Assembly: GCA_964533715.1 (NCBI GenBank)
Contig: CAZHNI010000001.1
Span: 5,514-69,513, forward strand
Source of the DNA: an uncultured Gammaproteobacteria bacterium
GTDB taxonomy: Bacteria > Patescibacteriota > Patescibacteriia > Magasanikbacterales > GWA2-37-8
Direction: 5' to 3'
Length of the DNA stretch: 64,000 nucleotides
Under the pieces are notes generated by a model that was not told the origin of the DNA, ran no database searches, and worked only from the letters and a program-made list of their open reading frames with translations. Numbering within the stretch: position 1 is the first letter of the stretch; each line of letters begins with the position of its first letter. This document shows, in pieces, positions 2,168 through 48,139 of the stretch. A program made the translations under genes and the position numbers.

Positions 2168-3631
2168 ATGGGTTTAGAGGCGAAAGAAATTTTTAAGATT
2201 GTTTTGAATGTTTCCAAGAAAACCAAAATACCGGCATATGTCGTGGGCGGATATGTCCGCGATTTTTTATTGGAAAAAGAGAATAAAAAAGATGTGGATT
2301 TTGTGGTTGCAGGGAGTGGCATAACCTTTGCTCGTGAACTCGACGCAACTTTAAAACAAGAAGGGAGCCTCATTGTATTTGAAGATTTTGATACCGCGCG
2401 TTATGTACTTGGAGAAGGTGAAAATCAAGTAGTCTTAGAATTTGCTGGAGCGCGACAAGAGTTGTATGCTCCGCATTCTCGCAAACCAGTTGTTTCTGAG
2501 GCTTCAATTGAGCAGGATTTAATGCGTCGCGATTTTACCGTTAACGCTTTGGCAGTATTGGTTGATAATTGTGTTATTCGAGGCAAACTGGTACCCACGG
2601 CCACGTTTAAAAAACATATTATTGATCCGTTTGGTGGCCTGGCCGATTTAAAAGAAAAGATTTTAAAAACACCACTCGATCCCGATGTTACGTTTAGTGA
2701 TGATCCGCTCCGCATGCTCCGCGCAGTTCGCTTTGCCGCCCAGCTTAATTTTGCTATTCATCCCAAAACTTTTGAATCGATACACACTAATCGCGAGCGG
2801 ATTAAAATTGTCTCCGCCGAACGTGTCCAGGAAGAGCTACTAAAATTATTAGCTACCAACCAGCCTTCGGTGGGGCTTTTTTTTATGTTCCAATGTCACC
2901 TAATGGATATTATTTTACCCGAAGTATCTAGACTTAATGGTGTAGAAGACGTATTTGGTCATCAGCATAAAGATAACCTCGTCCACTCTTTTAAAGTGGT
3001 AGATAATATTGCCAATGAATCACCAAAAGTATGGCTTCGTCTTGCGGGTCTGCTTCATGATATTGGCAAGCCAGCCACAAAAAAATTTGTACCTAAAATT
3101 GGTTGGACATTTCATGCGCACGAACACATGGGGAGAAAAATGGTTTATGCATTGGCGCGTCGGCTTAAATTTTCTAAGGATTTAACCGATTATCTCGCTA
3201 AACTTGTCAGATGGCATCTTCAGCCAATTGCCCTTATGGACGATGGAATAACCGATTCGGCGGTGCGGCGTTTGGTGGTTACTATGGGGGCAGAGCTTGA
3301 CGATTTACTTATTTTGGGTAGAGGTGATATAACCACAGGGAATCCTTACAAAAAAGAGAAACGTCTTAAAAATTATGATTTGCTAAGAGCTAAGATTGCC
3401 GAACTTATTGAACGCGACAAATTGAACTCTTTTCAATCTCCGGTGCGCGGGGATGAAATTATGGCTGTGTGTAAACTTAAACCAGGACCCACAGTTGGTA
3501 AAATTAAAACGGCCATTGAGGAGGCTATTTTAGACGGAAAGATACCTAATGATCACGAACAGGCGTACGCTTTTTTTCTCAATATTAAGGATTCATTTTG
3601 TTCGGTAGCTGCTGATTGGGAGCGGGTGTAG
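2168..3631 (+). CDS. cca: CCA-adding tRNA nucleotidyltransferase (poly(A) polymerase head domain plus HD domain)
   Basis: Motifs GGYVRDFLL, DVDFVV and RDFTVNALA (pol-beta NTase head). HD phosphohydrolase motif HSFKVVD...LLHDIGK follows. Confidence 0.75.
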   Translation: MGLEAKEIFKIVLNVSKKTKIPAYVVGGYVRDFLLEKENKKDVDFVVAGSGITFARELDATLKQEGSLIVFEDFDTARYVLGEGENQVVLEFAGARQELYAPHSRKPVVSEASIEQDLMRRDFTVNALAVLVDNCVIRGKLVPTATFKKHIIDPFGGLADLKEKILKTPLDPDVTFSDDPLRMLRAVRFAAQLNFAIHPKTFESIHTNRERIKIVSAERVQEELLKLLATNQPSVGLFFMFQCHLMDIILPEVSRLNGVEDVFGHQHKDNLVHSFKVVDNIANESPKVWLRLAGLLHDIGKPATKKFVPKIGWTFHAHEHMGRKMVYALARRLKFSKDLTDYLAKLVRWHLQPIALMDDGITDSAVRRLVVTMGAELDDLLILGRGDITTGNPYKKEKRLKNYDLLRAKIAELIERDKLNSFQSPVRGDEIMAVCKLKPGPTVGKIKTAIEEAILDGKIPNDHEQAYAFFLNIKDSFCSVAADWERV

Positions 3632-3648
3632 TTGTCTCTTGAGACTAT

Positions 3649-3900
3649 GTGTGGTATGATAAATATGATAAATCATATTTATATATGCGTAATTTAGGTG
3701 GTTTTTGTAAAAATGTGTGCGGTGCAACTAGCCTTGGTGAACGCGGGCAGGTTGTTATTCCCAAGGAACTTCGAGATGAAATGAAATTAAAAACTGGCGA
3801 CAAGCTTTTTGTTATAGAACACAATGGTGCGATTGTGCTCGTTTCAAAAAAAATGATGCAAAAATTTGTTTCTGCAATTACTCGTAAATTAAATCTCTAA
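3649..3900 (+). CDS. AbrB/MazE (SpoVT-AbrB) family DNA-binding protein
   Basis: GERGQVVIPKELRDEMKLKTGDKLFV matches the swapped-hairpin AbrB fold signature. It sits directly upstream of the efflux pump genes. The true start may be an internal Met. Confidence 0.45.
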   Translation: MWYDKYDKSYLYMRNLGGFCKNVCGATSLGERGQVVIPKELRDEMKLKTGDKLFVIEHNGAIVLVSKKMMQKFVSAITRKLNL

Positions 3901-5664
3901 ATGTCTATGCCAAAAATTTTTAAGAATAAAAAATTTTTAATTGGGGTCGGCTTGATTATTCTGCTTGTTGGATATTATTCATATGGCCGTTATAAAAAAG
4001 CTCACCAGCCAGTAGCGTATGACACTGTATCAGTAAAACGTGGAGATCTGGTGCAAACTGTTGATGCCACCGGAAAATTAGAATCGGTTGACGATGTGGA
4101 TCTTCGTTTTGAAATTCCTGGTACGGTTGGCCAAGTAAATGTTGTTGAGGGTGGGACCGTAAAGGCACAGGCTATTTTAGCGACTCTCCGTTTAGGCGAA
4201 CTTAATGCGGCCGTGGCACAAGCCGCGGCACTTCTTAACCAAAAGTTAGCCGGCGCTTCAACTGAGGATGTGTCATATTATAAAGCTGCTATGGACGCAG
4301 CTCAGGCGTCTTATTTGCAGTCAAAAATTGACGCAGTGGCTTTACTATCCGGTGCTCAATCGGCTGTAGAAACCGCAAAAAATAATTTAAAGCTGGCTGA
4401 GGGCGGCGATCAGAGCCAGATTGTTATTAATGCTTATCAAAATGCAGTCGTAGCACTCCATGAGTCTGTTTCTAAATTGGATGATTCTCTAACCCAAGCG
4501 GATAATATTTTGGCGGTTGATAACGTGCTTGCGAACGATGCTTTTAAAGATTATCTTTCTCGTAATGATATTTCTAAGTTGAATATCGCTAAAGCGTTGT
4601 ATGCTGATGCTAAAATTCAAAAAAATAATTTTAGAAATGTCGCCGTTGTATTGACAACAAATAGCCCGCATGCAGATGTAGATGGCGCCTTTGGTTTGTT
4701 CGACGTGGCTTTTAACAAGATGAACCAGCTCTTAATTGCGGTGTCTGATGTTTTGACCGCGACCCCGCCAGTTTCGAACTTAACCCAGGCAGCACTTGAT
4801 GCCAAGAAAACAATAATTGAAACCGCTCGCGCCGCGCTTTCATCCGAATACGCGACTATGATTAACCAAAAACAATCATTGGCCGACGCAAAAACCAGTT
4901 TGGAAGCTTACTCCGCCGCTTACACCAAGGCCCTGCGCGATTTGGAGTCGGCTAAAGCAAACGCCTCAACTTCAGTGCAACTTAAAGAGGCTGCCTACAC
5001 TCAGGCTTTGTCAACGTATCAAACCAAAGTAAACCCACCACGCGAAGTTGATATAGCGCCTCTTCGCGCCGCTCTTTCACAAGCGGTGGCTAATCGTGAA
5101 AAAGCTATCATTCGTGCGCCATTTGACGGGCAGGTAACTAAGATATCAAAAAAAGTAGGGGAAACAGTTTCTTCGGCAGATATTATTATGAATATGTTTT
5201 CTCCACATTTTGAAATAAAAGTTGATGTTCCCGAAACCGATGTAGCCAAACTTATTGGAAATAATGGCAATGCGGTTACGTTTACCGTTGATGCGCTTGG
5301 AGAAGACCAAAAATTTAACGGTCAAGTTTTAACTATTGAGAAAAAATCAACTGAAATTCAAGATGTTGTATATTATCAAGTACGAATTGCCGTTAATAAA
5401 GGATATGAAGATAAACCGTTTAAATCTGGAATGACCGCCAATGTGGTAATTCACACAGCCGATCGGTCACAGGTTTTGTTTGTTCCACTTCGCGCCGTGC
5501 GAACTCGTACCGATGGCACTAAGTATGTTCGTATTCTTGAGAATGGGGTAGAAAAGGAAGCGACTGTTAAGCTTGGTCTTAAAGCTGATGAAAATAAGGT
5601 TGAAATAGTTGAGGGTCTTACCGAAGATCAGGTGGTTATATTAGGCGTTAAACAGGCAAGTTAA
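3901..5664 (+). CDS. HlyD-family periplasmic adaptor / membrane fusion protein (MacA-like)
   Basis: N-terminal TM segment, long Ala/Gln-rich coiled-coil, and C-terminal beta-barrel (FDGQVTKISKKVGETV...). It is followed by MacB-like ABC genes. Confidence 0.65.
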   Translation: MSMPKIFKNKKFLIGVGLIILLVGYYSYGRYKKAHQPVAYDTVSVKRGDLVQTVDATGKLESVDDVDLRFEIPGTVGQVNVVEGGTVKAQAILATLRLGELNAAVAQAAALLNQKLAGASTEDVSYYKAAMDAAQASYLQSKIDAVALLSGAQSAVETAKNNLKLAEGGDQSQIVINAYQNAVVALHESVSKLDDSLTQADNILAVDNVLANDAFKDYLSRNDISKLNIAKALYADAKIQKNNFRNVAVVLTTNSPHADVDGAFGLFDVAFNKMNQLLIAVSDVLTATPPVSNLTQAALDAKKTIIETARAALSSEYATMINQKQSLADAKTSLEAYSAAYTKALRDLESAKANASTSVQLKEAAYTQALSTYQTKVNPPREVDIAPLRAALSQAVANREKAIIRAPFDGQVTKISKKVGETVSSADIIMNMFSPHFEIKVDVPETDVAKLIGNNGNAVTFTVDALGEDQKFNGQVLTIEKKSTEIQDVVYYQVRIAVNKGYEDKPFKSGMTANVVIHTADRSQVLFVPLRAVRTRTDGTKYVRILENGVEKEATVKLGLKADENKVEIVEGLTEDQVVILGVKQAS

Positions 5665-25646: not shown

Positions 25647-26510
25647 ATGTATACGTCCGTAACAATTAAACAGTTGCACCACGCACTCCAAGCGCTTGAC
25701 CCATCAGCGCTTGTTTTGTTAGGGGGCAGTTATTTATATGACGAAGCGGTAGAGGAAAGTGATGTTGATTTTTATTTTATAATACCTTCATGGAAGATAT
25801 TTTTTTTAAAGAAATTTAAAAAAATAATTCAGAATTTAAAACAGCGTTTTTCTGGCGTGAATTTTAGTGTTATGATTGTGCCACAATGGCTTCGACGGCA
25901 TGGATACTATATTTATGGAAAAGATGTCAGCGGTAAAATTCATACATGGGAACTCCCAATTTCAATATTAATAAGGAATTGTCTTAAGCTGGCCTATTTT
26001 AATTATTTACGGTCAATGGTGGAACCAAAAAATAAAGAGAGAAATGTTCAGAAAGTAAAAAAGCAACTTGCGGTAGCAGAACTTGCCGCGCAAGGTAAGG
26101 TAGATTTTAAAGAACCAATTTTTTCGTGGAAATATATCAAACGACATTTGGTCTCGTCTGTCATTTCGACCGTAGCGACCAAAGGGAGCGAAGTGGAGAA
26201 ATCGCTTGACTGCAGTGACTCACAGATCAAGGGATTCCTCGACTGCGGCTTCGCCTTCGCTCGGAATGACAACGCGAATGACGGTCTACGGCAAGTGCAT
26301 GGACAATTCCTCCCATATTTTAATTTTTCCTTGTCAAATTATTTGCTTTACAATATTCGTTTTTTGCTCAAAGGCAACCCCTTGTTTCTATTTAGTAATC
26401 CTGATAAAATGGTGTTAGAAAAAATGGTTATTGGAATTGAGCACGAAGAAAAACTCCCAGAATTGTATAAAGAAATAAAAAGAATTGTTTTTCCTGTTAT
26501 TATTTTTTAA
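25647..26510 (+). CDS. nucleotidyltransferase-domain protein with an in-frame palindromic-element insertion
   Basis: LLGGSYLYDEAVEESDVDFYFI matches the pol-beta superfamily GS...DxD signature. Codons ~172-209 are encoded by repeat copy 26159-26271. Confidence 0.4.
   Translation: MYTSVTIKQLHHALQALDPSALVLLGGSYLYDEAVEESDVDFYFIIPSWKIFFLKKFKKIIQNLKQRFSGVNFSVMIVPQWLRRHGYYIYGKDVSGKIHTWELPISILIRNCLKLAYFNYLRSMVEPKNKERNVQKVKKQLAVAELAAQGKVDFKEPIFSWKYIKRHLVSSVISTVATKGSEVEKSLDCSDSQIKGFLDCGFAFARNDNANDGLRQVHGQFLPYFNFSLSNYLLYNIRFLLKGNPLFLFSNPDKMVLEKMVIGIEHEEKLPELYKEIKRIVFPVIIF
26159..26271. repeat. palindromic MITE-like element copy (TIR TGTCATTTCGACCG...CGCTCGGAATGACA), in frame in the nucleotidyltransferase gene
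   Basis: Terminal inverted repeats and internal sub-palindromes are shared with the other copies. Confidence 0.7.
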
Positions 26511-31214: not shown

Positions 31215-32165
31215 ATGATGATAGATACACACGCCCATGCGCACTTTAACGCCTATAAGGATGATATGGACGAAGTAATAGAGCGGAGCCTTGCTAGGGG
31301 TGCTGTTATTAATTTAGTTGGGACCCAAGCAGATACGAGCAAGCGGGCGGTTGAAGTCGCCGAAAAATATGACGGAGTATACGCCACAATTGGTCTTCAT
31401 CCAGAACATCTTTTTTCCAAGTGGGTTGACGAAGAAGAAACCTCTTTTCAATCGCGGGAAGAAAGTTTTGATTATGAGTACTACAAAAGTTTGGCGGTAA
31501 TGCCCAAAGTTATTGGCATAGGGGAGTGTGGGTTAGATTTTTACCGTATTCCCGAAGGTATGACCAAAGAGGCTATGCTCCCTAAACAGGCAGAAGTTTT
31601 TAGGCAGCATATTAATTTATCTCAAGAAACAAACTTGCCGCTGATAATTCATTGTCGTGAGGCGCATGAGGAGATGATTGCCATCCTGAACACGTTCGTT
31701 TCGCTCAGTGTAAACTCCGCGGAGCGTGGTGAAGGACCCCCTCAAAAGCAAGGGGATTATTCGGTCGTCCCGAGCAATTCGGGACTCCCTCAGAATGACA
31801 ATGCAAACAAAAAATTACGTGGCACGATGCACTGCTACACCAGCAGCTGGATTAATGCCCAAAAATATTTAGAAATGGGTTTTTACATTGGTTTTACCGG
31901 CGTTATTACATTTCCTCCCCAAAAAGCGAACCCGCAAGCCCAGGCGGATTTATTGGAAGTTGTTCGTAAGATGCCAGAGGACAGGATACTTTTGGAAACC
32001 GATTGCCCTTATTTATCACCAATTCCATATAGAGGAAAGCGAGGCGAGCCTTGGATGATTGAGGCAACAGCAGCAAAAATAGCGGAACTCCGCGGAATAA
32101 GTTTGGAAGAAACCCTAAGCGTAACAACAAAAAATGCGCGGAACCTTTTTCAGAAAATGGTTTAG
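31215..32165 (+). CDS. tatD: TatD-family metal-dependent hydrolase with an in-frame palindromic-element insertion
   Basis: IDTHAHAH, GECGLDFY, IIHCREAHEE, HCYTSSW and ETDCPYL motifs. About 35 extra residues (VSLSVNSAERGEGPPQKQGDYSVVPSNSGLPQNDNA) between the third and fourth metal-binding motifs are encoded by repeat copy 31697-31798. Confidence 0.7.
   Translation: MMIDTHAHAHFNAYKDDMDEVIERSLARGAVINLVGTQADTSKRAVEVAEKYDGVYATIGLHPEHLFSKWVDEEETSFQSREESFDYEYYKSLAVMPKVIGIGECGLDFYRIPEGMTKEAMLPKQAEVFRQHINLSQETNLPLIIHCREAHEEMIAILNTFVSLSVNSAERGEGPPQKQGDYSVVPSNSGLPQNDNANKKLRGTMHCYTSSWINAQKYLEMGFYIGFTGVITFPPQKANPQAQADLLEVVRKMPEDRILLETDCPYLSPIPYRGKRGEPWMIEATAAKIAELRGISLEETLSVTTKNARNLFQKMV
31697..31798. 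repeat. degenerate palindromic element copy, in frame in tatD
   Basis: Right TIR CCCTCAGAATGACA, left arm degenerate (CGTTTCGCTCAGTG), inner palindrome GTCCCGAGcaatTCGGGAC. Confidence 0.55.
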
Positions 32166-33286: not shown

Positions 33287-33323
33287 AACATAAAAACACA
33301 AGAACATTAAAACACAATAAGCC

Positions 33324-33356
33324 GTTTTAATGTTTTAATGTTTTAATGTTTTAATG
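33324..33356. repeat. tandem octamer (TTTTAATG)x4 preceded by an 11-bp perfect hairpin in the atpB-atpE spacer
   Basis: AACATTAAAAC...GTTTTAATGTT stem, then GTTTTAATG repeated four times. Confidence 0.7.
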
Positions 33357-33650
33357 ATATCTACCCTGAATCGTATAAGCCGTACATTCGGCGATTCAAC
33401 GGAGATGGATATCAAGAAAGTTAATTCTATGGATCACGAATCACTCGTGACGATTATGAAGGGTGCCACGATGGCGCTCGGCGGCGTTGTTCCCGCCATA
33501 TCAATTGGTCGTATCGTAACCAAGGCTATGGAGTCTATTGGCCGTAATCCGGAATCAGCCGGTAAATTGTTCGTTCCCATGCTTCTTGGTGCTGCTTTTG
33601 CCGAAGCTATCGCTATTTACGCTCTTGTAGTTGTATTTACTCTCAAATAG
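33354..33650 (+). CDS. atpE: F0F1 ATP synthase subunit c (probable true start near 33429, MDHESL..., giving ~73 aa)
   Basis: Two-helix hairpin with GRNPE loop and conserved carboxylate in AAFAEAIAIYALVV. Confidence 0.8.
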   Translation: MISTLNRISRTFGDSTEMDIKKVNSMDHESLVTIMKGATMALGGVVPAISIGRIVTKAMESIGRNPESAGKLFVPMLLGAAFAEAIAIYALVVVFTLK

Positions 33651-33657
33651 CTCAACT

Positions 33658-33682
33658 CACCGGGCCACTTGTTGGCCTGGTG
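33658..33682 (+). promoter_or_regulatory. stem-loop between atpE and atpF (attenuator-like)
   Basis: CACCGGGCCA-cttgt-TGGCCTGGTG hairpin with no immediate T-run. Confidence 0.3.
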
Positions 33683-33701
33683 AACTTGGATTATTTTAAA
33701 C

Positions 33702-33824
33702 TGTCATTCTGAGCCTGCCTCCTGCATGCGCAGGTATGGCGCAGACAGGTGAAATGAAGAATCTTCCTATTATGAAGATCCTTCCCCAAAGGGGTCCCTT
33801 TGGGACGCTCTGCTCAGGATGACA
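33702..33824. repeat. palindromic element copy, intergenic atpE-atpF
   Basis: TIR TGTCATTCTGAGC...GCTCAGGATGACA. Carries the CCTGCCTCCTGCATGCGCAGG and GAAGAATCTTCCTATTATGAAGATCCTTC modules. Confidence 0.75.
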
Positions 33825-33835
33825 AAATAGAATCT

Positions 33836-34776: not shown

Positions 34777-34884
34777 TGTCATTGCGAGGAGCAAAGCGAC
34801 GAAGCAATCCCCCTGAGTTCAGTGCTCCTGAAAACAAGGGGATCGCCACGTCAGCCGGTGCGAACCGGCTTCCTCGCGATGATA
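34777..34884. repeat. palindromic element copy, intergenic atpH-atpA
   Basis: TIR TGTCATTGCGAGG...CCTCGCGATGATA; shares the GCAATCCCCCTGA core with the rlmN copy. Confidence 0.7.
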
Positions 34885-34904
34885 GCTTTAATCTAATAAA
34901 ACCT

Positions 34905-36716: not shown

Positions 36717-37739
36717 ATGGCAGTAAGTACCAAAACAATTAAACGCCGCATCAAATCAATTTCCAACACCAAAAAAATTACTAAGGCCATGGAGATGATT
36801 AGTGCGGTAAAAATGCGCCGAGCGGTAGCCAATGTTTTGGCTACCCGAAATTATGCTAGCCTGGCTTGGGAAATGCTTAAAGAAATTTCCGAGTACACGC
36901 ACGATGGCCACCATGCACTCTTGCAAAAAAGGCCTGTTAAAAAAATCGGTCTCATTTTAATTACCAGTAACCGAGGGTTGGCTGGCGGTTTTAGCAGCCG
37001 GTTATTGCAGGAAGTAGACAGCTACATAAAAAAAATCACTCATCAAACTGTCATTCCGACGACACGTGCGCTCCGCTCAGTGCAGGCTCCAGAGGAATCT
37101 CTGGCTCATTCGAATGACGGACAGAGATCCCTCGTCGGCGCGAGCCTCACTCGGGATGACAAAGTGCAAATTGGCATTGAAGCCGACATCATTCTTACTG
37201 GTAAGCGCGGCAAAAAAATTTATCATCGTTTTGGGCACACTGTGGTGGCCGAATTTGATAAAGTAGATCTTACCACCAGAATTGAAGAAATTTTACCCAT
37301 GGCCCAGTTGGCGGTAAAAGAATTTGTTGCCGGAACATACGACCAAATTGTAGTGGCGTACATGCATTTTAAATCCGCAATTGAACAAGTGGCCACAGTA
37401 AAACAAATTTTGCCGCTTACGAAAGATTCAATTAAAGAACTGGCCGCCAAAGAAGCTGATGACACTGAAGAAATAGAAGAGAGCACATTTTTGTTTGAGC
37501 CAAACCCGGCGCTGGTGCTTGATGTACTCTTGCCACGTTTGGTTGAAATGCAAATGTATCAGGCAATTTTGGAATCGGACGCCTCCGAGCACAGCGCTCG
37601 CATGATGGCTATGCGAAACGCCAGTGATTCGGCCAGCGATATGATTAAAGAGTTGCAAAACAGCTTTAACAAAGCACGCCAAGCAGCTATTACCCAAGAA
37701 ATTAGTGAAATTGTGGGTGGTGCAGCGGCCCTGGAGTAA
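36717..37739 (+). CDS. atpG: F0F1 ATP synthase subunit gamma with an in-frame palindromic-element insertion
   Basis: Conserved N-terminus (TKTIKRRIKSISNTKKITKAMEMISAVKMRRA) and C-terminus (MMAMRNASDSA...ITQEISEIVGGAAALE). About 38 extra residues (TVIPTTRALRSV...TRDDK) are encoded by repeat copy 37049-37161. Confidence 0.85.
   Translation: MAVSTKTIKRRIKSISNTKKITKAMEMISAVKMRRAVANVLATRNYASLAWEMLKEISEYTHDGHHALLQKRPVKKIGLILITSNRGLAGGFSSRLLQEVDSYIKKITHQTVIPTTRALRSVQAPEESLAHSNDGQRSLVGASLTRDDKVQIGIEADIILTGKRGKKIYHRFGHTVVAEFDKVDLTTRIEEILPMAQLAVKEFVAGTYDQIVVAYMHFKSAIEQVATVKQILPLTKDSIKELAAKEADDTEEIEESTFLFEPNPALVLDVLLPRLVEMQMYQAILESDASEHSARMMAMRNASDSASDMIKELQNSFNKARQAAITQEISEIVGGAAALE
37049..37161. repeat. 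palindromic element copy, in frame in atpG
   Basis: TIR TGTCATTCCGACG...CTCGGGATGACA; inner GAGGAATCTCTGG...GGACAGAGATCC module. Confidence 0.75.
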
Positions 37740-40235: not shown

Positions 40236-41999
40236 ATGAAATATAACACAAGATTAACGTTAAAAATTTATTGGAGCGAAGCACGTCGACACTGGCTTTC
40301 GATGATTATTATTGTTATCGGAGTGGTGGGCGGTTCTTTTGCTGGAATTATTATCCCCCTTTATTTTAAGGCATTTTTTGATATTCTAGCGAGCTCAAAT
40401 TCATCAGCTGCTTCGGTCTCGGCTCTTTTTGGAGTGCTTGTTGCCATTGCCATGGTTGAGGCTGCTCGTTGGCTGTGTTGGCGCACCGCTGGTTTTTTTA
40501 ATAATTATTTTCAACCAAAAGTAATGGCAGCTTTGGCTAATCGATGTTTTGCATATTTGCACAAGCACTCTTTTGGGTACTTTAACAGCAATTTTGTTGG
40601 CTCTTTGGTTAAGCGTGTTAATTGGTTTACGCGCGCCTTCGAAAGTGTCGCCGATAAAATTACCTGGACATTCATTAACTTGTTTGTAGATTTAGGCGTG
40701 GTGGTGTTTATTTTATTTCGAAAAGATTTTCGTCTAGGCCTCGGCAGTTTAGCTTGGATTATTTTATTCTTATCGGTAAACTGGATTTTTACTTCATACA
40801 AATTACGGTTTGATATTAAACGCAACGAAGCCGAAACAAAAGCCACCGGTGTTTTAGCCGATACCATTACTAATAACAGTAATGTGAAGTTGTTTGTTGG
40901 GTATGGGCGCGAACGCCAAAGGTTTGCTGAGGCTATGGAAAAGGTACGCTATCTTCGCCGTTTCACTTGGAACCTCGACAGTGTATTTGAAGCTGTGCAA
41001 GGTTTTTTGGTAGTTTTGTTTGAGCTTGGTATTTTTTACTTAGCCACTATTCTTTGGAAAGAAGGACATTTAACGGTAGGTGACTTTGTCCTGCTTCAAT
41101 CATTCCTTATAATAATTTTTGATAAGGTGTGGGATTTTGGGAAGATCGTGCGTAATTTGTATACAGATTTATCGGATGCCGAAGAGATGACTGTCATATT
41201 AAATACCCCGCACGAAATTCAGGATGCTCCGGGAGCCAAAAAACTGCGCGTAGAAGCGGGTCTTATTCAGTTCAAGAATGTCGATTTTTATTATCACGAG
41301 ACGCGCAAAATTTTCCGAAAATTAAATTTGGAAATTGCCGGCAGTGAAAAAATTGCCTTAGTTGGCCCATCGGGGGCAGGTAAATCTACCATTATCAAAT
41401 TGCTTCTTCGCATGCATGATGTTTCGGGTGGGAGTATTTATATTGATAACCAAAAAGTATCGGCTGTAACGCAAGAAAGTTTGTGGGGAGCCATTAGTAT
41501 GGTGCCGCAGGATCCAATTTTGTTTCACCGCACGCTACTAGAAAATATTCGCTACGGCAAACCAGAGGCTACGGATGAAGAGGTGATTGCGGCCGCCAAA
41601 CTCGCACATTGTCATGAATTCATTTCGGAATTTCCAGACAAATATGAAACTTATGTGGGCGAACGCGGTGTCAAATTATCTGGCGGTGAACGTCAGCGTG
41701 TAGCTATTGCCCGGGCAATTTTACGCAACGCTCCAATACTGGTACTCGATGAAGCCACCTCGAGTCTTGATTCAGAATCCGAACATCTTATTCAAGATGC
41801 GTTGGCCAAACTCATGGAGAACAAAACCGTTATTGTAATCGCTCACCGTCTGTCTACTATAATGAAAATGGACAGAATTTTAGTGGTAGACCACGGCGAG
41901 GTGGTAGAAAGCGGTACCCACCAAGAGCTTCTTAAACTCAAATCCGGCCTTTATCATCAGCTGTGGAAACGACAGGCAGGTGGGTTTATACAGGACTAG
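40236..41999 (+). CDS. ABC transporter, fused permease/ATP-binding (MsbA-like exporter)
   Basis: Six-TM N-terminal domain, Walker A GPSGAGKST, signature LSGGERQRVAIARA, Walker B ILVLDEATS. Confidence 0.75.
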   Translation: MKYNTRLTLKIYWSEARRHWLSMIIIVIGVVGGSFAGIIIPLYFKAFFDILASSNSSAASVSALFGVLVAIAMVEAARWLCWRTAGFFNNYFQPKVMAALANRCFAYLHKHSFGYFNSNFVGSLVKRVNWFTRAFESVADKITWTFINLFVDLGVVVFILFRKDFRLGLGSLAWIILFLSVNWIFTSYKLRFDIKRNEAETKATGVLADTITNNSNVKLFVGYGRERQRFAEAMEKVRYLRRFTWNLDSVFEAVQGFLVVLFELGIFYLATILWKEGHLTVGDFVLLQSFLIIIFDKVWDFGKIVRNLYTDLSDAEEMTVILNTPHEIQDAPGAKKLRVEAGLIQFKNVDFYYHETRKIFRKLNLEIAGSEKIALVGPSGAGKSTIIKLLLRMHDVSGGSIYIDNQKVSAVTQESLWGAISMVPQDPILFHRTLLENIRYGKPEATDEEVIAAAKLAHCHEFISEFPDKYETYVGERGVKLSGGERQRVAIARAILRNAPILVLDEATSSLDSESEHLIQDALAKLMENKTVIVIAHRLSTIMKMDRILVVDHGEVVESGTHQELLKLKSGLYHQLWKRQAGGFIQD

Positions 42000-42005
42000 G
42001 GTAAT

Positions 42006-42070
42006 TGTCATTCCGAGCGAGGCCAAAGGCCGGCGAGAAATCTCTGTCTCAATCAAATGGACAGAGATTT
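42006..42070. repeat. truncated palindromic element copy (left TIR plus AAATCTCTGTCtcaatcaaatgGACAGAGATTT module)
   Basis: TGTCATTCCGAGCGAGGCC left end identical to the helicase copies; right TIR missing. Confidence 0.65.
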
Positions 42071-42075
42071 TTTTC

Positions 42076-42104
42076 TGGACAAATGTTTATATTTGTGCTA
42101 AAAT
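42076..42104 (+). promoter_or_regulatory. sigma-70-like promoter TGGACA-N17-TAAAAT upstream of rlmN
   Basis: Lies between two palindromic-element copies (42006-42070 and 42123-42187). Confidence 0.4.
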
Positions 42105-42122
42105 GAGCAAAAATTATCGAAT

Positions 42123-42187
42123 TGTCATTCTGAGTGAAACGAAGAATCCTCCTATTATGAAGATCCTTCGCTCCGCTCAGGATGACA
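42123..42187. repeat. short palindromic element copy immediately upstream of, and overlapping, the rlmN start region
   Basis: TGTCATTCTGAGTG...CGCTCAGGATGACA with the GAAGAATCCTCCTATTATGAAGATCCTTC module. Confidence 0.75.
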
Positions 42188-42199
42188 GACGATTATCAC

Positions 42200-43411
42200 A
42201 TGACTAAAATTGTCAAAACAATAGAATCCATTCTAGCTAATGAACCCGCCTTCCGCATTAAGCAAATTGAAAAGGCGTGGTTTGATGTGTCCTTAAATTC
42301 GTACGATGAAATTACTACCTTGCCAAAAGAGCTTCGCGAAAAATTAAAAGATATTCCCTGGTTAAGTTTGGAAGTCCACACCGAATTAAAAAGCAAAATG
42401 GATAACACGCGCAAATACCTTTTTAAACTAGGGGATGGGAATTTGATTGAGATGGTCTTGATGGGTCGTATGTCATTGCGAGCCCCGAAGGGGCGCGGCA
42501 ATCCCCCTGATTTGATCGAGGACGTTGACGAGGAGATTGCTTCGTCAGTCGCTGCGACGCTCCTTTCTCGCAATGACACATCGGCGATTGGCCGCGACAC
42601 CAGTGGCGATCGTTACACCATCTGTATTTCATCTCAAGCCGGGTGCCCCATGCGGTGTGCGTTTTGCGCCACGAGCAAAAGCGGTTTTAAGCGTAATCTT
42701 ACCGCCGAAGAAATTATAGATCAATATCGTTTCGCCCAGCGACTACTGGCCAAAGAAAATAATCGGGTGAATAATATTGTGCTCATGGGCCAAGGGGAAC
42801 CGCTGGTAAACTATGAGAACGTAAAAAAAGCGATCAATACTATTTTAAAAAACAGCGACATCGGCTCTACCAAAATAACTCTATCCACTGTTGGTTATGT
42901 GCCCGCCATGGAAAAAATGATAACCGACACCGACTTTCCGCCGGTGCGTTTTGCCTTGTCACTTCACAGCGCTATAGAAGAATCGCGTAAAAAAATTATT
43001 CCAACGCACAAACCAGGGTTTTTGGAATGGCTCGTGAAGTGGGGGAATGCCTACCACGAAAAATTTGGCAACCGCACCCATTTTATTGGTTTTGAGTACA
43101 TTATGTTAAGTGGGGTAAATGATGATGAAGCACATTTGAAGGCACTGATAAAATTGTGCAAACGTTTTCCTATCGTTCGCGTTAACCTCATTCCGTACAA
43201 CACCACCAACGATGCCGGTGAGGTTGATGAAATTAATAAATTGGAAGAACAAATGGGCTCTAATTATCGCATTTTTACCCGCACCCCGCACGAGCTTATT
43301 GAACATTGGCACGAGAGTCTTATGGATGCGGGAATTACGTCCACTATCCGTTATTCGCAGGGGCAGGATATTGCGGCGGCGTGTGGGCAACTCCGGAATA
43401 AAGAAAAATAG
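42200..43411 (+). CDS. rlmN: radical SAM rRNA/tRNA adenosine-C2 methyltransferase RlmN with an in-frame palindromic-element insertion
   Basis: Radical SAM CxxxCxxC (CPMRCAFC), GQGEPL, and a C-terminal catalytic Cys region. About 36 extra residues (MSLRAPKGRGNPPDLIEDVDEEIASSVAATLLSRND) upstream of the cluster are encoded by repeat copy 42471-42578. Start set at ATG 42200, because tracked start 42182 lies inside a repeat. Confidence 0.75.
   Translation: MTKIVKTIESILANEPAFRIKQIEKAWFDVSLNSYDEITTLPKELREKLKDIPWLSLEVHTELKSKMDNTRKYLFKLGDGNLIEMVLMGRMSLRAPKGRGNPPDLIEDVDEEIASSVAATLLSRNDTSAIGRDTSGDRYTICISSQAGCPMRCAFCATSKSGFKRNLTAEEIIDQYRFAQRLLAKENNRVNNIVLMGQGEPLVNYENVKKAINTILKNSDIGSTKITLSTVGYVPAMEKMITDTDFPPVRFALSLHSAIEESRKKIIPTHKPGFLEWLVKWGNAYHEKFGNRTHFIGFEYIMLSGVNDDEAHLKALIKLCKRFPIVRVNLIPYNTTNDAGEVDEINKLEEQMGSNYRIFTRTPHELIEHWHESLMDAGITSTIRYSQGQDIAAACGQLRNKEK
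42471..42578. repeat. palindromic element copy, in frame in rlmN (108 bp, 36 codons)
   Basis: TIR TGTCATTGCGAGC...CTCGCAATGACA. Confidence 0.75.
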
Positions 43412-43950: not shown

Positions 43951-43996
43951 ATCAATCGCTTGACACAAATTCCGCCAAAGTTTAAACTATAGATAT

Positions 43997-44257: not shown

Positions 44258-44306
44258 ATTATAGCGTTTTTTGCGATTTGTAAAGCTTACCAAATTACGA
44301 TATACT

Positions 44307-44331
44307 AGTACCACTAAATTGGTACTTTTTT
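44307..44331 (+). terminator. rho-independent terminator
   Basis: AGTACCA-ctaaat-TGGTACT hairpin followed by TTTTTT. Confidence 0.55.
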
Positions 44332-44340
44332 AATTGCGGA

Positions 44341-44370
44341 CAGTGATTCTTCACTGCGCTCAGAATGACA
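44341..44370. repeat. partial palindromic element (right end CGCTCAGAATGACA plus CAGTGAttcttCACTG hairpin) at the helicase start
   Basis: Right TIR matches the family consensus. Confidence 0.45.
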
Positions 44371-44376
44371 GAAAAT

Positions 44377-47300
44377 ATGGGAAAATACTCTTTAAACAAG
44401 GCGCAACGTGAAGCCGTGGAGTATACCAGCGGCCCGCTTTTGATTGTGGCTGGGGCGGGGACGGGAAAGACGACGGTGATTACAAGTAAAATTTGTCGGT
44501 TGATTGAGGAAAAACTCGCCAAACCCGAGGAAATTTTGGCATTAACGTTTACCGAAAAAGCGGCGGCGGAAATGCAGGATAGGGTAGATGAGATAACCAA
44601 TATTGGCTACGCCGATCTCCACATTTCTACCTTCCACGCCTTTTGTCAAAAAATTCTGGAGCGGCATGCCATTGATATCGGCCTCTCCAATTCGTTTAAA
44701 CTCCTCACCGACACGGCGGGCTGGGTTTTGCTCCACAAAAATTTGGATAAATTTAATTTGGATTACTACCGACCGCTCGGCAACCCTACTAAACACATTC
44801 ACGAATTTTTAAAACATTTTTCTAAGTGCAAAGATGAATTAATTACACCGCAGGAATATTTGGAGTATGCGGAAGGTTTAAAATTGAACAATGGACGAGA
44901 CCCCACCCTGCCCTCCCCTTTGCGAAGGAGAGGGGACAAAACCCCCTCCTCTGCAGAGGAGGGGGTAGGGGGAGATCTCGCGGAGGTCGAGCGGCTTACG
45001 GAAATTGCCAACGCGTATCACACGTATAATCAACTGCTTTTGGACAACGCGCTATTTGATTTTGGCGATTTGCTTTTTTATACCGTCAAATTATTTCGCG
45101 AACGGCCGAATGTGCTCAAAATGTTCCAGAATAAATATAAATATATTTTGGTGGATGAATTTCAGGATGTGAACTATTCGCAGTATGAATTAATTAAACT
45201 CCTGGCGGACGCCTCATTGTCATTTCGACCGGAGCCCCAAAGGGGCGAAGTGGAGAAATCCCTGTCTCAATCACGAACGGACAGAGATTCCCTGCCTGCA
45301 CCATGCCTGCGCATGCAGGAGGCAGGCTCGTCGGCCTCCGGCCTCGCTCGGAATGACAATATTGTTGGTCCCAACCTCACCGTGGTAGGGGATGATGACC
45401 AAAGTATTTATGCCTTTCGCGGCGCCAGTGTGGCGAATATTCTAAGGTTTAAAGATGATTATCCAACAGCCAAAGAAGTGGTGCTATCGGAAAATTTTCG
45501 TTCCGGCCAAAAGATTTTGGATGTGGCGTATGAGTCTATTCAGAACAATAACCCGGATCGGTTGGAAGTGAAGTTAAAGATAGACAAGCGACTAAAGGCC
45601 AAAAGGCCATCTGTCATTTCGACGACGAAGGAGAAATCTCTGGCTCACCAAACGATGAATAGAGATTCCCTGCCTGCACCATGCCTGCGCATGCAGGAGG
45701 CAGGCTCGTCGGCCTCCGGCCTCGCTCGGAATGACAATGGGGATGGCGTGGTGATACATTTGCACAAACCAACCGTCGAAGACGAGGTAGCGGCTGTTTT
45801 GGACGAAATTACGCGTATTAAAACGGTTACCGAAGGCGTAACCTGGGATGATTTTGCTATTTTGGTTCGTGCCAACAATCACGCGGATGCGTTTATAAAC
45901 CAACTGCAAACACGAGGCATTCCATACGAATTTTTGGCTTCTAGCGGATTGTATCGTCAACCGATTATTTTGGATTGCATAAACTTTTTTAAACTCCTGA
46001 ATAATTATCACGAATCCAGCGCAATTTATCGACTGCTCTGTTTACCTTTTTTTGAATTTAGAGAAAATGATTTACAAAAAATTACCTTTAATGCCAAGCG
46101 CAAAAGTATTTCGTATTACGAAGCACTCAAACGCGCTCCCGAATTTGATGTGTCGCAAGCAGGGATTAGCGTGTGTGCTAAATTGGTGGAAGTAATTCAT
46201 GCCGGCCTCCAGAGTATGCGTTACGAAAAGCCATCGGTGGTGCTGTATTCATTTTTGGAAAATAGTGGTTACCTCAAATACTTAACACACCAGGAAAACG
46301 AAGGTAAGGGCGATGTGATTCGCCAAATTCATTATTTAAAACAGTTTTTTGATTACATTGCGCAGTATGAATCGGTAACGCCTGAGGCGCATGTGGTCGG
46401 GTTTATAGAGCATTTTATGATGGTAGTGGACGCGGGTGATAAGGGAAGCCTCTACCAGCCGAGCGACACACCGGATTCCGTAAATATTTTGACGGTGCAC
46501 GCCTCCAAGGGCTTGGAATTTCGCTATGTGTTTGTAGTGAATTTGGTAGAAGATCGGTTTCCATCACGCAGTCGCAGTGACGCGCTGGAAATTCCGCTTG
46601 AACTCGTGAAAGAGCAATTGCCGGAAGGCGATAGCCATATTCAAGAAGAACGACGATTGTTTTATGTGGCCATGACGCGCGCCAAGGAACGTTTGTATTT
46701 TACCAGCGCGAGCGATTATGGTGGTACGCGCACAAAAAAGATTAGCCGATTTTTGGCGGAGTTAGATTTTGGTTCTGTCATTCTGAACGGAGCAAAGCGC
46801 AGTGAAGAATCCCTGTCTGCGCAGGCAGGTCTGTCTCAATCACCAACCGACGGACAGGGATCCTTCGCTTCGCTCAGGATGACAAAAAAAGTAAATGAAA
46901 TGAGTGAGCGAGTGTACGAAACGCCAAAAACTTTTTCATTCTCACAATTGCGATCGTACGAAACCTGTCCATATCAATACAAACTGGCGCATATTTTGCA
47001 TATCCCCATGAAGGGCAGTGCGAGTTTTAGTTTTGGTTCCAGCATGCACAACACACTCCAAGCGTTTTATGAACGGGTAATTGAGCTTAACAGTTCCAAA
47101 CAAGTCTCACTTTTTGACACACCCAAACCATCTGTCATCCCGAGCGTAGTCGAGGGATCCCTTTCGCCAACGTCAAGGGATTCCTCCACTCCGCTACGCT
47201 CCGGTCGGAATGACAAAGCGGTGAAAGTACCAGAATTTGAGGAGCTCTTAAAAATGTACGACGCTAAGTGGATTTCGGATTGGTTTAAGGATAAACGCCA

Positions 47301-47790: not shown

Positions 47791-48122
47791 TGAGACCGAT
47801 TGGTGATATAATTAGCAAACACTTGTCGACAAAATCGACTGTTTTAACCGGTGCGCGAGCCGCCAATTTTGTTGAACTTGCCAATGATTGGCTTTACAAG
47901 GAATTTGGCCCGGACGTGAGAACCTTTGCCTCTGCAAAATATTTTAAGACCGGGGCTCTTTCAATCACCTGTCTCAATTCGGTAGTCGCCCAGGAAATTA
48001 GGCTACGAGAGGCCTCTTTACTCCAATTTTTAGCTCAAAAATCAGGTTCATCAATGGTCAAAAAAATACTCTATAGGCAGATTCCGGAGAGCGCCTATGA
48101 GGACTTGCCAAACGGCGATTAA
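47787..48122 (+). CDS. DUF721/DciA-like protein
   Basis: Size and pattern (IGDIISKHL...GALSITCLNSVVAQEIRLREASLLQFL) resemble the DUF721 family; weak call. Confidence 0.35.
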   Translation: MMRPIGDIISKHLSTKSTVLTGARAANFVELANDWLYKEFGPDVRTFASAKYFKTGALSITCLNSVVAQEIRLREASLLQFLAQKSGSSMVKKILYRQIPESAYEDLPNGD

Positions 48123-48139
48123 AGAATTAGAATAGGGGA

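Follow-up and report, generated by a model that had tools for sequence, protein, structure and literature searches.

TGTC-tagged palindromic repeats flank a predicted ancestral promoter of rlmN in a Magasanikbacteria genome

The predicted promoter of rlmN in this Magasanikbacteria genome is ancestral and older than the repeat elements on either side of it, as judged from the corresponding loci of relatives. This comparison answers the main question, and a bracketed ancestral promoter is an ordinary outcome of repeat spread. The account that we consider probable, and hold with good confidence, is that the terminator, the promoter and the rlmN start codon were in place first, and that TGTC-tagged REP copies colonised the region later. 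An inverted REP dimer (42123-42187) would have inserted between the -10 hexamer and the ATG, and an upstream unit (42006-42044) with a spacer hairpin would have come between the stop codon of the ABC-transporter gene and the -35 hexamer; the elements would add RNA or DNA structure and no promoter hexamers.

Locus Layout and Sequences Compared

The window (the whole stretch of DNA analysed, 64 kb) carries an ABC-transporter gene with ABC_membrane and ABC_tran domains (Pfam; 40236-41999, plus strand, from the open reading frame list; stop codon TAG at 41997-41999) and, after a gap of 200 nt, rlmN (42200-43411, plus strand), which encodes a radical-SAM 23S rRNA A2503 methyltransferase and was delimited by homologues, alignment and Pfam. 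The gap holds both repeat copies and the promoter-like site. Copy 1 is a partial repeat (42006-42070, plus strand; TGTCATTCCGAGCG...GACAGAGATTT) that starts with TGTCATTCCGAGC. Copy 2 is a complete inverted REP dimer (42123-42187, plus strand), a 65-nt palindrome that starts with TGTCATTCTGAGT, has the inverted partner of its left terminus at 42174-42186 on the minus strand, and lies in the predicted rlmN leader. Between the two is a predicted sigma-70-type promoter (42076-42104, plus strand), from which 18 nt (42105-42122) lead to copy 2; a further 12 nt (42188-42199) separate copy 2 from the conserved rlmN ATG. The original prediction that a partial and a complete copy bracket TGGACA-N17-TAAAAT is thus borne out for all three features and their positions.

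Eighteen related loci and RlmN homologues were compared, nearly all of them from Magasanikbacteria (CPR/Patescibacteria). The orthologous loci were taken from species-representative genomes and from contigs encoding close RlmN homologues. An ABC-transporter gene also precedes rlmN in loci L001, L021, L026, L030 and others.

The Predicted Promoter Upstream of rlmN

The promoter-like site, recognised by scanning and by conservation, consists of TGGACA (-35; 42076-42081), a 17-nt spacer and TAAAAT (-10; 42099-42104), with a TG at 42096-42097 (TGGACA-N17-TGcTAAAAT). It scores 10/12 and has the TG extension; because 21 sites scoring at least 9/12 were found in a 5-kb scan against 13 expected, a match of 10/12 is by itself weak evidence. 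On a stricter score, the rlmN site ties for the best of 15 plus-strand sites in the 64 kb, seven of which are intergenic. Beyond its hexamers, 17-nt spacing and TGn extension, the site has the conservation at orthologous positions expected of a sigma-70-type promoter. In L001, the closest relative (86% RlmN identity), it reads TTGACG-N17-TGcTAAAAT, and this locus has the block ATTTGTGCTAAAATGAGCAAAAA and the downstream dimer in common with the window. In L021 (79%), which is free of elements, TGGACA-N17-TGcTAGAAT-GAGCTGAT-ATG follows straight on from the end of the ABC gene, and in L026 (74%), which retains the same atpC-ABC-rlmN-helicase synteny, a GC hairpin and T6 are followed by TTGATT-N17-TGaTATACT, 9 nt and the ATG. 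The same layout is seen in L003, L005, and L010, where the -10 ends 9-12 nt before the rlmN ATG, and in L008, with a weaker promoter match; no clear promoter was found directly before rlmN in L019, L002, L004, or L027. Just 8-12 nt separate the -10 from the rlmN ATG in the element-free relatives, whose layout is leaderless or nearly so. Such a site falls within a 7-nt window before the ATG in 5 of 17 element-free loci, at a background of 2.9e-4 per nt (binomial P ~2e-10, a nominal value that overstates independence because the lineages are related).

Both hexamers in the window belong to the 52-nt interval that separates the copies, neither of which contains them, and the presence of these hexamers in at least five element-free Magasanikbacteria loci argues that the elements did not deliver the promoter. 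The original prediction had left two possibilities, and the comparison of rlmN upstream regions that it called for separates them: insertion of the elements around an existing promoter is upheld by equivalent sites in the element-free L021, L026, L003, L005, and L010, with L001 having the promoter and copy 2 and no upstream TGTC unit, and delivery or creation of the promoter by the element pair is contradicted. Delivery through terminal hexamers, as in Correia elements and some MITEs, would have had precedent, given that MITE-borne promoters are documented (Correia, MITEAba12, BrickBuilt, QMITE1; PMC10969869) and that the element termini here carry an outward ATGACA, a 5/6 match to TTGACA. It is nonetheless extremely unlikely at this locus: neither 42076-42081 nor 42099-42104 is contributed by an element, the promoter persists in loci that have no element and in L001, where the upstream unit is missing, and copy 1 is without the right terminus that would carry ATGACA. 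A single composite element spanning 42006-42187 with an internal promoter was also considered and ruled out, since copy 2 begins with a left terminus of its own, the left-hand TGTC unit is missing from L001, and L021 has neither copy.

A second way in which a repeat could drive transcription is through a hybrid promoter, in which the ATGACA at the end of copy 2 (42182-42187) pairs with TAAAAT at 42205-42210. This combination (ATGACA-N17-TAAAAT) reaches 10/12 in the scan and 10.5 under the stricter scoring, but it would start transcription at about 42217, inside rlmN and beyond the conserved ATG, where no start codon in frame lies close by; the hybrid is also absent from L001, and a suitably spaced -10 accompanies only one of the window's 22 element ends, a number consistent with chance. 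We consider this hybrid very improbable, and the ancestral site at 42076-42104 remains the preferred promoter.

When metagenomes were scanned with the promoter 22-mer ATTTGTGCTAAAATGAGCAAAA, the four contigs recovered (L022-L025) came from an unrelated locus with no rlmN orthologue; these have TTGAAA-N17-TAAAAT sharing the 22-mer, followed by a conserved GC-rich leader.

Anatomy and Distribution of the Repeat Family

The terminal motif GTCATTCYGAGYG (at most two mismatches) occurs 20 times in the window, compared with 2.7 +/- 1.7 times in shuffled sequence, and none of 100 shuffles reached 20. With a looser scan, approximately 14 family copies were located between 26 and 47 kb of the window. 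Most arms have the form TGTC + ATYCYGAG + loop + CGARGRAT + C(C), and most copies are composed of two such TGTC units, inverted around a spacer, for a total of approximately 11 inverted dimers and two singletons (42006; 44333-44370) in the window. TGTC begins 22 of the 23 arm ends examined, the exception being the degenerate right end of the 34777 copy. The eight-position stem (ATYCYGAG / CGARGRAT) always opens with AT, and six of its eight positions pair: five Watson-Crick pairs are followed by a conserved tandem G.A/A.G and then one more pair. In the minimal units (both units of copy 2, R46884, R44370, L47133, L45612), the loop measures 5-6 nt; in the others, it extends to 14-41 nt, with GC mini-hairpins inserted. 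The tails are C-rich (CCC, CTC, CAC, or CC), and none is CCA.

Every terminal motif in the 64-kb window pairs with another within at most 140 nt. The elements are 65-141 nt long with termini of 13-25 nt, within the size and terminal-inverted-repeat range of MITEs, and no consistent direct repeat was found in the flanks of 11 copies. At copy 2, an ATTATC repeat stands 4 nt from either end; it does not abut the element and is not seen in L001. No Y1 transposase was found by tblastn of the 64-kb window, and no parent insertion sequence with matching termini was found in the window or the fetched loci. One candidate mobiliser, a RAYT-like Y1 HUH transposase (3563-4144, HIH ... YYEH) in L020 (79% RlmN identity), was rejected, having no flanking TGTC units: the gene lies between a small gene and a helicase, no TGTC unit occurs within the 5.8 kb of L020, and no homologue of this transposase is present in the window.

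Eight copies lie in frame within genes (26159-26271, 31681-31800, 37049-37161, 42471-42578, 45218-45358, 45612-45736, 46776-46884, and 47133-47215), and their hosts are an NTP-transferase-domain protein, a TatD DNase, the ATP synthase gamma subunit, RlmN, and, with four copies, a UvrD/PD-(D/E)XK helicase; such in-frame insertion, including that into a UvrD-type helicase, is a trait of the CGTC/TGTC REPs. The copy within rlmN (42471-42578, plus strand) is a dimer of 108 nt, encoding 36 aa, and belongs to the same family as copies 1 and 2. The RlmN loop that it occupies is an insertion hotspot: the window and L001 (4272-4385) share one dimer there, homologue P0002 has another variant, P0003 and P0008 have other inserts, and the site is empty in P0004, P0007, and P0015.

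Intergenic copies with a right end (33702-33824, 34777-34886, 42123-42187, and 44333-44370) all stop 6-18 nt 5' of the next start codon (4/4), namely those of an atpF-like gene (33836), atpA (34905), rlmN (42200), and the helicase (44377). The gap upstream of the ATP synthase b-like gene (33287-33835, 549 nt) is unusually long for a compact genome, and the REP dimer fills only its last 130 nt.

Related arms were also found outside this genome, in other phyla (comparison records L031, L032, and L033). Over 33 nt, an arm of the 34777-34886 copy shows 97% identity to a palindrome of 80 nt that lies between genes on Methylosinus trichosporium plasmid pOB3b1 (L031 1500-1582), and the related Methylosinus copy begins with CGTC. 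Copy 2 (queried as 42117-42193) matches nested copies in the PglX and MmeI genes of Planktothrix agardhii plasmids, and single arms match Phocaeicola plasmid records. A search of a phage collection with 42000-42200 gave no match, and the only Rfam hits were chance matches below threshold, to hairpins of eukaryotic miRNAs and snoRNAs. Literature searches on the element sequence, its encoded peptides, and MITEs in CPR bacteria returned nothing relevant; the family was recognised only via PMC3733652.

The Upstream Copy and the Terminator-Like Hairpin

Copy 1 is a truly partial copy, made up of a singleton unit and half of a dimer spacer. Its unit (42006-42044, plus strand) has the tag TGTC, the 5' stem ATTCCGAG, a 16-nt loop with a GGCC-AAA-GGCC mini-hairpin, the 3' stem CGAGAAAT, and the tail CTC, and it aligns with the left arms of the full copies at 45218, 26159, and 37049. 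A nine-copy alignment pairs copy 1 with full copies (e.g., 45218-45358) over their left terminus, GC mini-hairpin, and central hairpin. Copy 1 ends after GACAGAGATT, where a T-run follows, and the right arm is missing.

The spacer part forms a terminator-like hairpin (42038-42075, plus strand), detected as an inverted repeat and by folding, in which AAATCTCTGTC and GACAGAGATTT form 11 bp around an 11-nt loop (-17.9 kcal/mol), followed by T7 (42068-42074). It begins approximately 38 nt past the stop codon and has the hairpin and U-run of an intrinsic terminator; its loop is longer than typical, and a consensus scan made no terminator call there. A hairpin with a T-run stands directly 5' of the -35 in L001 (-12.9 kcal/mol), L026 (-17.1), L020 (-12.4), and L003 (-10.0), and because the spacer hairpin sits at this same place, it is probably the terminator of the ABC-transporter transcript. 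In the account that we favour, the hairpin and T7 would now end ABC transcription at a site where other lineages have unrelated terminators. Where copy 1 reads GATTTTTTT, the full elements read GATTCC, and the T-run, which is present only at the truncated copy, was probably inherited from an older terminator.

The sequence AAATCTCT..AGAGATT occurs elsewhere only in the spacers of REP dimers and in the L001 terminator. This restricted distribution suggests that the terminator hairpins of both the window and L001 lineages are derived from the element. The TGTC unit upstream of rlmN is missing in L001, and either of two histories would fit the only two genomes that share the AAATCTCT..AGAGATT hairpin: a gain of copy 1 in the window lineage, or a loss of the unit in L001.

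Alternatively, copy 1 could be an ordinary terminator that merely resembles the family, with no element remnant. The stem base (AAATCTCT/AGAGATT) does recur in the L001 terminator, where no TGTC unit is present, and several lineages have, as an ancestral feature, a hairpin with a T-run ahead of the -35. We nevertheless regard this as quite improbable: no part of the unit is missing from 42006-42044, which has the tag, the stem, the GC mini-hairpin, and the 3' stem; of the 21 nt that follow (GAGAAATCTCTGTCTCAATCA), 20 agree with the 45218 copy; and the AAATCTCT..AGAGATT motif otherwise occurs, in the two genomes, only in the spacers of REP dimers. A partial REP copy therefore remains our reading of 42006-42070.

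The Downstream Dimer, the Predicted rlmN Leader and the Start Codon

Copy 2 is composed of a left unit (42123-42149; TGTC ATTCTGAG TGAAA CGAAGAAT CC), a spacer (42150-42161), and a right unit (42162-42187; in reverse complement, TGTC ATCCTGAG CGGAG CGAAGGAT C), and it folds alone at -28.9 kcal/mol. An orthologous copy occupies the same site in L001, with 26/27 identical positions in the left unit. The presence of the dimer between the -10 and the ATG in both genomes points to an insertion in their common ancestor.

Transcription of rlmN is predicted to start at approximately 42110-42112, and the favoured account places it at ~42111, which would give a leader of approximately 89 nt, nearly all of it REP hairpin. 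A fold of the 120-nt leader region (-36 kcal/mol, z = -5.7) has the AUG at 42182 paired and the AUG at 42200 unpaired. Translation would then begin, without a Shine-Dalgarno sequence, at the AUG at 42200, where the RNA is unpaired just beyond the 3' end of the stem; most genes of the window appear to use the same route. A Shine-Dalgarno-like motif (-18 to -4) precedes only 3 of the 58 predicted genes (57 of which are on the plus strand), so that its absence before rlmN is normal here.

The longest open reading frame and the database entry for RlmN (P0001, 409 aa) both start at an ATG (42182-42184, plus strand) inside the right REP terminus GGATGACA. The homologue alignment instead has translation start 12 nt beyond the element, at ATG 42200, and the L001 equivalent of the in-repeat ATG is out of frame; the ATG at 42182 is probably spurious and 42200 the conserved start. 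The claim that copy 2 overlaps the rlmN start region accordingly holds for the longest-ORF and database start and fails for the conserved one. The helicase presents a parallel case, in that its longest-ORF start (ATG 44365) lies inside the terminus of the REP singleton and the conserved N-terminus (MGKYSLNKAQ) begins at 44377; the same pattern of mis-annotation is described by Di Nocera et al. (PMC3733652). Upstream of the helicase (44278-44332), a promoter (TTGTAA-N17-TATACT) is directly followed by a hairpin and T6, such that transcripts from this promoter would hold only the 3' half of the hairpin. This arrangement is kept in L026, L027, L030, and L020.

Other leaderless-type promoters occur in the window at 43960-43988 (before ATG 43997) and at 48105-48133 (before ATG 48140), with 6-8 nt from the -10 to the ATG. 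A genome-wide leaderless signal was not apparent: 20 of 58 genes have TANNNT 5-12 nt ahead of the ATG, about the number expected by chance in AT-rich DNA. When the dimer is removed from the window or from L001, 26-30 nt are left between the -10 and the ATG, so 'leaderless' fits the distant relatives and not necessarily the immediate ancestor, which may have had a short leader rather than none.

The leader dimer could also have been domesticated for post-transcriptional control, as a 5' stabiliser, an RNase III site, or a structure that opens the AUG, rather than being carried as a neutral passenger. Two lineages have kept the dimer in the same position, its units are better preserved (26/27 and 22/26 identical between the window and L001) than is flanking coding DNA (46/60 and 39/60), and the intergenic element ends consistently lie 6-18 nt 5' of a start codon, as noted above for all four complete cases. 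RNase III processing of Correia hairpins is documented (PMC10969869), and post-transcriptional roles for REPs are among those described in PMC3733652. High unit conservation, however, is equally predicted by concerted evolution or by recent spread of the repeat; the site is common to two genomes only, and most relatives express rlmN without such a leader. Domestication is thus a possibility that we consider somewhat unlikely, and the preferred reading is still that of later colonisation around a pre-existing promoter and start codon.

Implications

The order of events at this locus, in which the promoter came before the repeats, settles the earlier either/or question. The probable mis-annotations of two start codons are also corrected (rlmN ATG 42182 and helicase ATG 44365), which has consequences for gene calling and for protein-family alignments in CPR genomes. 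CGTC/TGTC REPs, known from five listed phyla, are abundant in a Magasanikbacteria genome, where they occupy predicted leaders and terminators and in-frame sites of essential proteins, and rlmN provides a concrete locus for the effect of a REP hairpin on an mRNA that may once have been leaderless.

More tentatively, and as a reading that we think unlikely, TGTC REPs may have been co-opted in this Shine-Dalgarno-poor CPR genome: the hairpin would replace the ABC terminator, the dimer would make an ancestrally leaderless or near-leaderless rlmN mRNA leadered, with the 5' stem-loop under selection. Besides decorating essential CPR proteins in frame, the family has arms nearly identical to copies from Alphaproteobacteria, and its members can also be recognised in Cyanobacteria and Bacteroidota, a breadth that would imply an unknown, broadly shared mechanism of mobilisation or maintenance.

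Comparison With Known Repeat Elements

The CGTC-tagged REP superfamily (Di Nocera, De Gregorio and Rocco, 2013; PMC3733652) includes RPE-4 and RPE-6 of Rickettsia conorii and dRS3 of Neisseria. Its members have an unpaired terminal tag, CGTC, often TGTC (variants TGTC, CCTC), an 8-9-bp stem opening with A and T, a 4-5-nt loop, and a 3-nt tail with the consensus CCA; they occur mostly as inverted dimers that fold as one hairpin, with singletons as remnants, and in-frame intragenic copies are frequent, especially in repair genes such as UvrD/REP helicases (PMC3733652). The paper gives no dedicated transposase and lists the superfamily for five phyla (PMC3733652). The elements in the window share the unpaired terminal tag, inverted pairing, and in-frame copies (including UvrD/REP-type helicases), and they come close in their eight-position stem that opens with AT, minimal loops of 5-6 nt, and C-rich tail; no associated transposase was seen in the 64 kb. 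They differ in having six of eight stem pairs with a conserved tandem G.A/A.G, loops of 14-41 nt, tails of CCC/CTC/CC, and a CPR/Patescibacteria host, outside the paper's five phyla. Matched by their described features, they fit a new member or variant of the CGTC/TGTC REP superfamily, not placed in CGTC-1 to CGTC-4.

The MITE label of the original prediction fits in part. The elements are small and non-coding with terminal inverted repeats, but the absence of a target-site duplication at 11 copies makes them poor classical MITEs, and their units fit TGTC REPs. Like the Correia elements of Neisseria, they are short inverted repeats just 5' of genes, with transcribed hairpins and hexamer-like termini; Correia is a MITE, with terminal inverted repeats and a target-site duplication, that supplies a functional -35/-10, whereas the promoter here is independent and no duplication is found. 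Similar to the Rickettsia palindromic elements, the family places palindromic repeats in frame in unrelated housekeeping proteins, although it is distinct in sequence from RPE-1 (~150 bp; Ogata et al., 2000/2002, as summarised in PMC10969869), and copies 1 and 2 are intergenic, not coding. In GTAG REPs/REPINs, as here, the inverted dimer is the apparent mobile unit and singletons look like decayed dimers, but those elements are RAYT-mobilised and carry another tag, and there is no RAYT in the window. Finally, a repeat-derived hairpin just 3' of a stop codon, placed as a terminator or 3' stabiliser, is shared with known repeats; unlike in those repeats, the T-run here lies outside the full element and occurs at the truncated copy only.
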